64,000 bases of DNA from assembly GCA_951406725.2 (NCBI GenBank), contig OX597822.1, forward strand, positions 37,820,001 through 37,884,000, written 5' to 3'. Under the pieces are notes generated by a model. The model had not been told where the DNA came from. It saw only the letters and a program-made list of their open reading frames with translations, and made no database searches. The DNA comes from Octopus vulgaris. Its lineage: Eukaryota. A program made the position numbers and the translations under genes. Below, one piece after another: positions 54,188-54,613 of the stretch (the first letter of the stretch is position 1; each line of letters starts with the position of its first letter).

Positions 54188-54613
54188 TTTACAAAATATG
54201 GGCAAAAGAAAAATTCTAATGCCAAATATGCCGAAAAAAAGACAAAATTGTCAATAACCATTATAATTTATGCGTCTCAAAACAAATCGATAGAAATTTC
54301 TAAAAAAATCCGTTATTACCGTATTGGTCCCAATTTCTGGGTTAATTTATAAAAATTTTCCCCTCTTCAGCGATAAATACGTGAGACATAAATGAAATAC
54401 TTACTCATACCCATGGAAAAAGCAAGCACTAAGTCCTGAGCAGACCTAAGTACCCCAAAGTGAACACTATTAAATTTACAACTAATGTAGGATAAAATTT
54501 TTTCGAGAAAAATTTTTTATCAATGGCCAGCATATCAAAAAATACCTTTAAAGGTTAAATTTATAAATAATTTACAAATTAAGGGCAAAAGAAAAATTCT
54601 AATGCCAAATATG
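54188..54613 (-). mobile_element. Retrozyme-like unit: 383-nt monomer with 43-nt terminal direct repeat, in (TA)n
   Basis: 54188-54230 matches 54571-54613 (2 mismatches); (TA)n on both sides; HHR inside. Confidence 0.8.
54316..54376 (-). ncRNA. Type I hammerhead ribozyme, canonical core, longer near-palindromic stem III
   Basis: Minus strand ttatcg-CTGAAGA-gggg...ccca-GAAA-TTGG-GA-CCAA-TA-cggtaa; 6-bp stem I. Confidence 0.82.

Follow-up and report, generated by a model that had tools for sequence, protein, structure and literature searches.

Within the window, by which we mean the whole 64-kb stretch of Octopus vulgaris DNA analysed here, positions 54188-54613 hold an insertion flanked on both sides by (TA)n runs and read on the minus strand (Table 1). 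Its two ends form a direct repeat of 43 nt (41/43 identical, period 383), so that the first-pass annotation was right to describe a unit with a 43-nt terminal redundancy lying in (TA)n. The unit has a GC content of 28.6%, and no second copy of it is present within the 64-kb window. Its minus strand folds better than shuffled sequences (z -4.09 in linear form); in circular form, the z values are -2.73 for the minus strand and -0.66 for the plus strand. Non-LTR retrozymes are non-coding units of about 150-450 bp with a highly self-paired RNA of low GC, and this copy, with 383 non-coding nucleotides, shares the low GC and the self-paired strand; the unit of its family is longer than this copy.

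Table 1. Features of the insertion and of the Penelope-like elements (PLEs) in the window.
Position	Strand	Feature	Basis or remark
54188..54613	-	Whole insertion: internally deleted repeat unit (383 nt) and 43-nt tail	Non-coding by profile search
54571..54613	-	First (5') copy of the terminal repeat, opening the unit	Corresponds to cut+92 to cut+134 of the preceding unit
54188..54230	-	Second (3') copy of the terminal repeat, interpreted as PLE tail	From cut+92 to cut+134; adjoins (TA)n
54076..54187	.	(TA)n on the 3' side of the element, start approximate	Target site; no TSD readable
54614..54877	.	Run of (TA)n/(TACA)n/(CA)n lying 5' of the element, end approximate	Sequence
54316..54376	-	Type I hammerhead motif	54376-54371 pair with 54321-54316 as stem I
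54370-54364	-	Hammerhead core CUGAAGA	Sequence
54363-54338	-	Hammerhead stem II	Sequence
54337-54334	-	Hammerhead GAAA	Sequence
54334-54323	-	Hammerhead stem III AUUGG-GA-CCAAU	Sequence
54322	-	H17, an A in the AUA triplet, followed by the predicted cut	Sequence
54338	-	Position 11.1: A here, G·A mismatch with 54363; mostly C or U in other copies	Contig variants
54458..54459	.	Deletion junction in this copy: AA microhomology; other copies continue into extra conserved sequence on both sides	Contigs
54489..54533	-	ATG 172 nt past the cut, then F-S-x-K-x-x-P: possible decayed PLE ORF start	Weak; profile not significant
34087..34937	+	5'-truncated Hydra-clade PLE with GIY-YIG end, sense hammerhead at 34813, ending in (TA)n	Protein match
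38261-40054 (of 37748..40054)	+	Hydra-clade PLE remnant, RT to start of GIY-YIG	ORFs, protein match
37748-38280	-	Inverted GIY-YIG piece of the same remnant, left of the RT part	ORFs

The coding content of the unit was assessed with a PLE profile built from 36 full-length Hydra-clade proteins, a choice by which another PLE clade may be missed. This profile gave 72 and 41 bits for the PLE endonuclease pieces of the window and revealed no PLE protein signal in the unit or across its joint (best score -0.5 bits, with a shuffle median of -1.4 and a best shuffle of 5.9), in agreement with the earlier description of the unit as non-coding. The single ORF of an autonomous Hydra-clade PLE, with its RT and C-terminal GIY-YIG domains, is absent from this copy. 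A plus-strand PLE remnant, suggested by endonuclease- and linker-like words, was rejected with the same best score, which lies below that of many shuffles. A solo pLTR, that is a 5'-truncated PLE reduced to its 3' UTR, hammerhead and optional tail, was also rejected, because the unit holds not only the tail sequence at its 5' end but also 113 nt that follow this sequence, the segment downstream of the tail.

The type I hammerhead motif comprises the core CUGANGA ... GAAA ... UH together with stems I to III. The coordinates proposed for it at the outset (minus strand, a 6-bp stem I, cut after 54322) are correct, the core, stems and AUA triplet all being found; one of the six pairs of stem I is a U·G, and the AUA triplet is known from natural hammerheads (PMC1636495). 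With a strict descriptor defined after the motif had been seen (stem I of at least 6, stem II of at least 3, palindromic stem III of at least 10 nt), this site is the sole match in the 64-kb window, and there was no match in 100 Markov resamples of 64 kb on both strands. Rfam reports no hammerhead at 54188-54613, neither at gathering nor at E<=10, and over the whole window it gives zero matches at gathering and chance matches only at E<=10.

The motif had been called intact and canonical, a description that fails at the base of stem II, where positions 10.1/11.1 form a G·A in place of the G10.1-C11.1 pair described as highly conserved (PMC4209133). Among 41 Hydra PLE hammerheads, this pair is U·U in 21, G-C in 14, A-U in three, G·U in two, C·A in one and G·A in none; in other copies of the octopus repeat, it is G-C or G·U at 74, 99, 95 and 100% of depth in the four sequencing runs X1, X3, X12 and X20, respectively. 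Judged from its bases, the ribozyme of 54188-54613 is damaged. As the many U·U pairs of Hydra hammerheads indicate that some families tolerate non-standard pairing at this place, the ribozyme may be weakened by the lesion rather than killed. Stem III had been considered too tight for a hairpin with a 2-nt loop and better suited to an intermolecular duplex. The second part of this proposal stands, since the two-molecule duplex is computed at -12.3 kcal/mol, so the dimer reading is energetically favoured, not proven; a monomer need not form the 2-nt loop, as a hairpin of 4 bp with a GGAC loop is allowed, although it is weak at +0.5 kcal/mol. With 12 nt, this stem is longer than in all 40 of the 40 scored Hydra PLE hammerheads (6-10 nt).

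The repeat has many copies. Twenty runs holding part of the unit were listed, from 11 studies and four organism codes, each with at most 52% of its words, and contigs at 80% likeness to it numbered 5668 in X1, 4481 in X3, 372 in X12 and 87 in X20. X1 and X3 are DNA and the other two were guessed to be RNA, no run being recorded as such; the contigs are built on 31-mers and show neither strand, ends nor level, and their summed depth was used neither for copy number nor for ranking the parts of the unit. Among the variants listed at paired positions of stems I-III, six out of eight keep or restore pairing alone, and the remaining two need a change of the partner, a change that the listed variants or a loose end do provide. 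In loop II, C-G takes the place of a U-A pair in 79-100% of depth in other copies, at both positions. None of the variants listed (12 others being outside the list) falls in the 11 core bases, which is not significant alone (p ~0.36). The hammerhead is bracketed on the minus strand by a donor-like GTAAGT (54404) and a U-rich AG (54300), but an intron there is unsupported: a donor precedes the hammerhead in 1/36 Hydra loci against 3/36 in the antisense control, and no skip across 54300-54404 was found in X12 or X20 among those listed. In metagenomes, a 25-nt stretch taken from the repeat had 0 matches.

The first-pass annotation had proposed a search for tandem and permuted copies. In X1 and X3, some contigs return from 54613 to 54234-54236, one of them with 73 letters on the shorter side, and no such joint is present among the pieces listed for X12 and X20. 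These contigs point to head-to-tail or permuted copies in DNA, part of which could be assembly paths of 31-mer contigs through the 43-nt repeat; the locus itself holds a single unit with one hammerhead. A high-copy, structured and non-coding family with head-to-tail DNA joints is supported, a Penelope-type repeat very common in octopus, of which 54188-54613 represents a single eroded and shortened copy. Variation of another kind is seen at 54324-54353 in X1, X3 and X20, where contigs sharing the 5' half of the hammerhead diverge for 144 to 766 nt and subfamilies have another stem III (1-nt centre; C-G replacing U-A). Loose ends that turn into (TA)n at 54200 in X3 show that some copies end near cut+139, like 54188-54613, and three X20 contigs end near cut+222 in (TA)n (54483); the tail length may therefore vary among copies.

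Other copies also reveal what this one has lost. Contigs leave the unit at 54459 in all four runs (29, 36, 5 and 4 contigs) and enter it at 54458 in three (31, 27 and 2), each time with a consistent consensus, and the two 30-nt consensus ends do not overlap. The junction is crossed by none of the 32 pieces listed, 10,686 more lying outside the list. Since the contigs depart and enter with extra sequence on both sides of a shared AA, 54188-54613 is an internally deleted form, arisen at an AA microhomology, of a unit that exceeds it by about 60 nt or more. Into the extra segment, one X20 contig continues for 206 nt; no contig bridging both of its sides was found among those listed, and its two 20-nt ends have 0 matches in the 64-kb window. 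The term 383-nt monomer is thus accurate for this copy and not for the family, whose unit length is probably different. As the missing middle is bounded only from below, it may hold an ORF; the annotation had named copies extending into a PLE ORF, which would make this a solo pseudo-LTR, as a case against its reading, and while the plain form of this case is ruled out by the downstream segment, the missing middle keeps a part of it alive. The extra segment has two further features. At one end it is followed in other copies by the AA and the next bases (54458-54465), an arrangement removed by the deletion in this copy and which we take to be a perfect ETS-type site, possibly part of an internal promoter. 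At the other end lies a second CTGAAGA on the hammerhead strand.

The window also contains PLEs. The pieces listed in Table 1 match Octopus sinensis proteins at 67% and 95% identity, and their relatives carry RWK, DKT and CxCX5C. These motifs characterise the Hydra clade, whose members insert in (TA)n and have hammerheads (PMC8557442). The element at 34087-34937 is of a kind that could supply an enzyme to the unit. The remnant at 37748-40054 has an Asn-rich linker and is 95% identical to an Octopus sinensis 'myb-like protein I', a label that is likely a mis-annotation. No DNA similarity was found between the unit and the PLEs of the window or 77 Hydra loci from other sources, so that we infer the partner from geometry only.

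This geometry was drawn from the Hydra elements. A sense hammerhead is present in 41/77 Hydra PLE loci, and from the cut to the start codon there are 142-219 nt (median 162 in the 24 out of 28 loci scored, four being without ATG), where the value of 219 nt (locus L070) rests on a doubtful hammerhead match. The distance is nearly fixed, at 142-186 nt in 23/24 loci. The 3' ends of these elements, mapped in 13 hand-picked loci with the exception of L003, which runs to its contig end, fall 38-198 nt past the cut in 12 loci, five of which run into (TA)n. Locus L013 begins at cut+93. The octopus unit begins at the equivalent of cut+92 and ends at cut+134 in (TA)n, inside the Hydra range, and the 43-nt redundancy is therefore best read as a PLE tail, in the sense given to this term in PMC8557442 and PMC11167929. 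Hydra PLE insertions are described with a frequent 30-40-bp tail and (TA)n targeting (PMC8557442). In the anole PLE, the one PLE studied in vitro, RT starts at two internal sites on unprocessed RNA, and these sites bound the tail (PMC11167929). The proposed link with the PLE machinery gains support from four sides: a 3' extension of tail size, an end between cut and ORF start, a (TA)n target and the presence of Hydra-clade PLEs in the window.

Further hammerhead-like motifs with a palindromic stem III occur at 34813 (+), 36608 (+), 40717 (+), 41418 (+), 43415 (-) and 60747 (-), each 118-206 nt upstream of a microsatellite run, and PLE-type ends are dense in this window; the motifs at 36608 and 40717 look decayed. 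At 43295-43626 and ~41290-41530, hammerhead units are accompanied by an inverted partial copy, resembling the inverted pLTR structures of PLEs. Repeats of other types also occur in the window: an LTR-retrotransposon-like pol remnant with RNase H and integrase-like words in its ORFs (26137-27951), two C-terminal remnants of LINE-type reverse transcriptases recognised from ORFs (61404-62099 and 11777-11960) and a 148-bp tandem repeat with 2.9 copies and 96% matches (23794-24229). Copies of a common SINE-like dispersed repeat lie at 53494-53945, 33800-34020, 41750-42130 and 43850-44000 and, we presume, resemble the tRNA-derived SINEs of octopus.

On balance, and with a probability of roughly 0.55, we read 54188-54613 as a degraded copy, with an internal deletion, of a non-autonomous and retrozyme-like PLE family that is present in many copies in octopus and that a Hydra-clade PLE protein most likely moves in trans. 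The direct basis of this reading is the anatomy of the insertion, the multi-copy family with its pairing-preserving variation, the extra sequence carried elsewhere and the co-resident Hydra PLEs, which share its end geometry and its target. An RNA longer than one unit, produced by tandem read-through or as a circle from a source locus elsewhere, would be bound by the PLE RT-endonuclease. The enzyme would nick (TA)n, begin cDNA synthesis at an internal site of the RNA, about 134 nt 3' of the hammerhead cut, and copy one unit followed by 43 nt of the preceding one, leaving unit and tail. Copying or later repair would have removed the middle of this copy between two AA dinucleotides, and its position 11.1 would have mutated. 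At source loci with two hammerheads, the palindromic stem III would most likely pair between neighbouring motifs and thus release unit-length RNA. Unit-length RNA requires two hammerheads, two consecutive units being the criterion for 'active' loci (10.64898/2026.07.22.740005); with its single hammerhead, 54188-54613 is a dead-end product that could be cut once at most and is unable to release a circle. The insertion cannot tell a tandem transcript from a circle as template, and a circular intermediate would not be needed for the tail, because two internal RT start sites on unprocessed RNA yield one in the anole system (PMC11167929).

Less probable, while still a serious contender, is an origin by internal deletion of an autonomous PLE. 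The lost middle would then be most of an ORF of ~2.1 kb, and the remainder would join a 5' UTR and ORF start to a 3' UTR, hammerhead and tail. The ATG at cut+172 falls inside the range of start codons of autonomous Hydra PLEs and is followed by F-S-x-K-x-x-P, a motif found in 44/56 Hydra N-termini and 2/2000 resamples, although it was picked after it had been seen. The junction is ~137 nt upstream of the cut, a place at which many Hydra ORFs stop, the extra segment has a long continuation and no bridging contig among those listed, and rotifer PLE copies disabled by microhomology-mediated deletions have been described (PMC3846280). Against this stand the score of the 25-residue frame on the N-terminal profile (-0.4 bits, with a null median of -0.9 and training-set controls of 24-43 bits), the lack in this frame of the K-[ND]-I-P present in 52/56 Hydra N-termini and the indels of one and two bases that other copies carry across the ORF-start stretch.

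The idea of an intact retrozyme with a circular RNA of 383 nt, from which 1.11 turns were copied into DNA and placed at this locus, has become improbable. A unit with a partial repeat is the trace expected from rolling reverse transcription of a circle, its size is near the 350-390 bp of mussel retrozymes (PMC7229834), its minus strand is self-paired and head-to-tail joints exist in DNA contigs. However, the loose ends at 54458-54459 in all four runs, with no listed piece crossing, set this copy apart from the full unit, its stem II begins with a G·A and only one hammerhead is present. In addition, forcing the hammerhead fold within the full unit costs 8.8 kcal/mol, whereas most metazoan retrozyme circles are predicted to leave this fold free (PMC7229834). 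Least credible of all is a dispersed satellite fragment spread by DNA recombination, with the hammerhead as an inherited relic without a role: 8/9 Xenopus retrozyme dimers failed to cleave in vitro (10.64898/2026.07.22.740005) and hammerhead cleavage was dispensable for anole PLE insertion in vitro (PMC11167929), but pairing-preserving and compensatory variation in all three stems and the fit of the ends to PLE geometry and target speak against it.

The reading as a copy of a non-autonomous PLE family can be placed among known systems. With metazoan non-LTR retrozymes, the octopus repeat has in common a non-coding unit of a few hundred bases, low GC, a type I hammerhead, a self-paired strand, many copies, head-to-tail joints and co-resident PLEs, and dispersed monomers are a state described for them (PMC7229834; 10.64898/2026.07.22.740005). 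It differs in that the octopus locus is a single unit with one damaged hammerhead, whereas 'active' loci in Li et al. have two consecutive units, and in its tail-sized terminal repeat, which we did not find among the features described in these accounts. By its sequence, 54188-54613 would work like a non-LTR retrozyme and is a candidate member of the group, with the exception of the stem II pair. Hydra PLEs are alike in (TA)n insertion, a palindromic stem III, mostly A at position 17, a 3' end between cut and ORF start and a tail on the scale of 30-40 bp (PMC8557442), and ORFs of their type, with RWK, DKT and CxCX5C, lie in the same 64-kb window. In contrast to these elements, the octopus unit has no ORF or detectable remnant of one, no DNA similarity to the sampled loci and a longer stem III.

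The non-autonomous PLEs of Chlamys (MRC1; PMC8557442) offer another parallel, as non-coding derivatives with pLTR-like repeats and head-to-tail copies. They are algal, mostly without hammerheads, and share 3' sequence with known autonomous partners; for the octopus unit, no shared terminal sequence was found with the PLE ends of the window or the 77 loci. In the Poseidon PLE of Anolis (PAc), RT starts that bound the tail lie ~85-92 nt 3' of the cut, a figure obtained by our own subtraction from +26 and +111-118 (PMC11167929), and the octopus redundancy starts at cut+92. An exact match of numbers across clades may be chance, and the PAc tail lies inside the ORF, whereas those of Hydra PLEs and of the octopus unit lie in non-coding sequence (PMC11167929).

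Several elements of this picture have precedents. Animal retrozymes have been argued to be non-autonomous PLE derivatives on the ground of vertebrate families (10.64898/2026.07.22.740005), algae are known to have non-autonomous PLEs whose copies lie head to tail (PMC8557442), and the mobilising enzyme of animal retrozymes has been argued from co-occurrence and pLTR similarity (PMC7229834; 10.64898/2026.07.22.740005). In the literature on octopus and cephalopod hammerheads, retrozymes and Penelope, we found no description of this family, although supplements of related papers may list octopus families. The repeat annotation of O. vulgaris counts 190 Penelope-like families, 6.83% of the genome (PMC13282606), and the word 'ribozyme' does not occur in the main text of that paper or in its one supplement; the octopus family may therefore already sit unnamed in its library.

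As the locus is a damaged dead end and hammerhead PLE ends are common (at least five more in the window), 54188-54613 is to be seen as a pointer to its family and not as a special site. More tentatively, with the odds rather against it, octopus would harbour a very abundant and undescribed family of short retrozymes, present as monomers of unit and tail in (TA)n and with circular RNA arising from tandem loci. If true, the tails would be a direct genomic footprint of a Hydra-clade PLE RT moving retrozymes by internal initiation, and the segment from hammerhead to tail would be a portable cis signal. A high-copy family with a PLE tail at a fixed distance from the cut would make the question of which enzyme moves retrozymes testable from genomes alone and in vitro.
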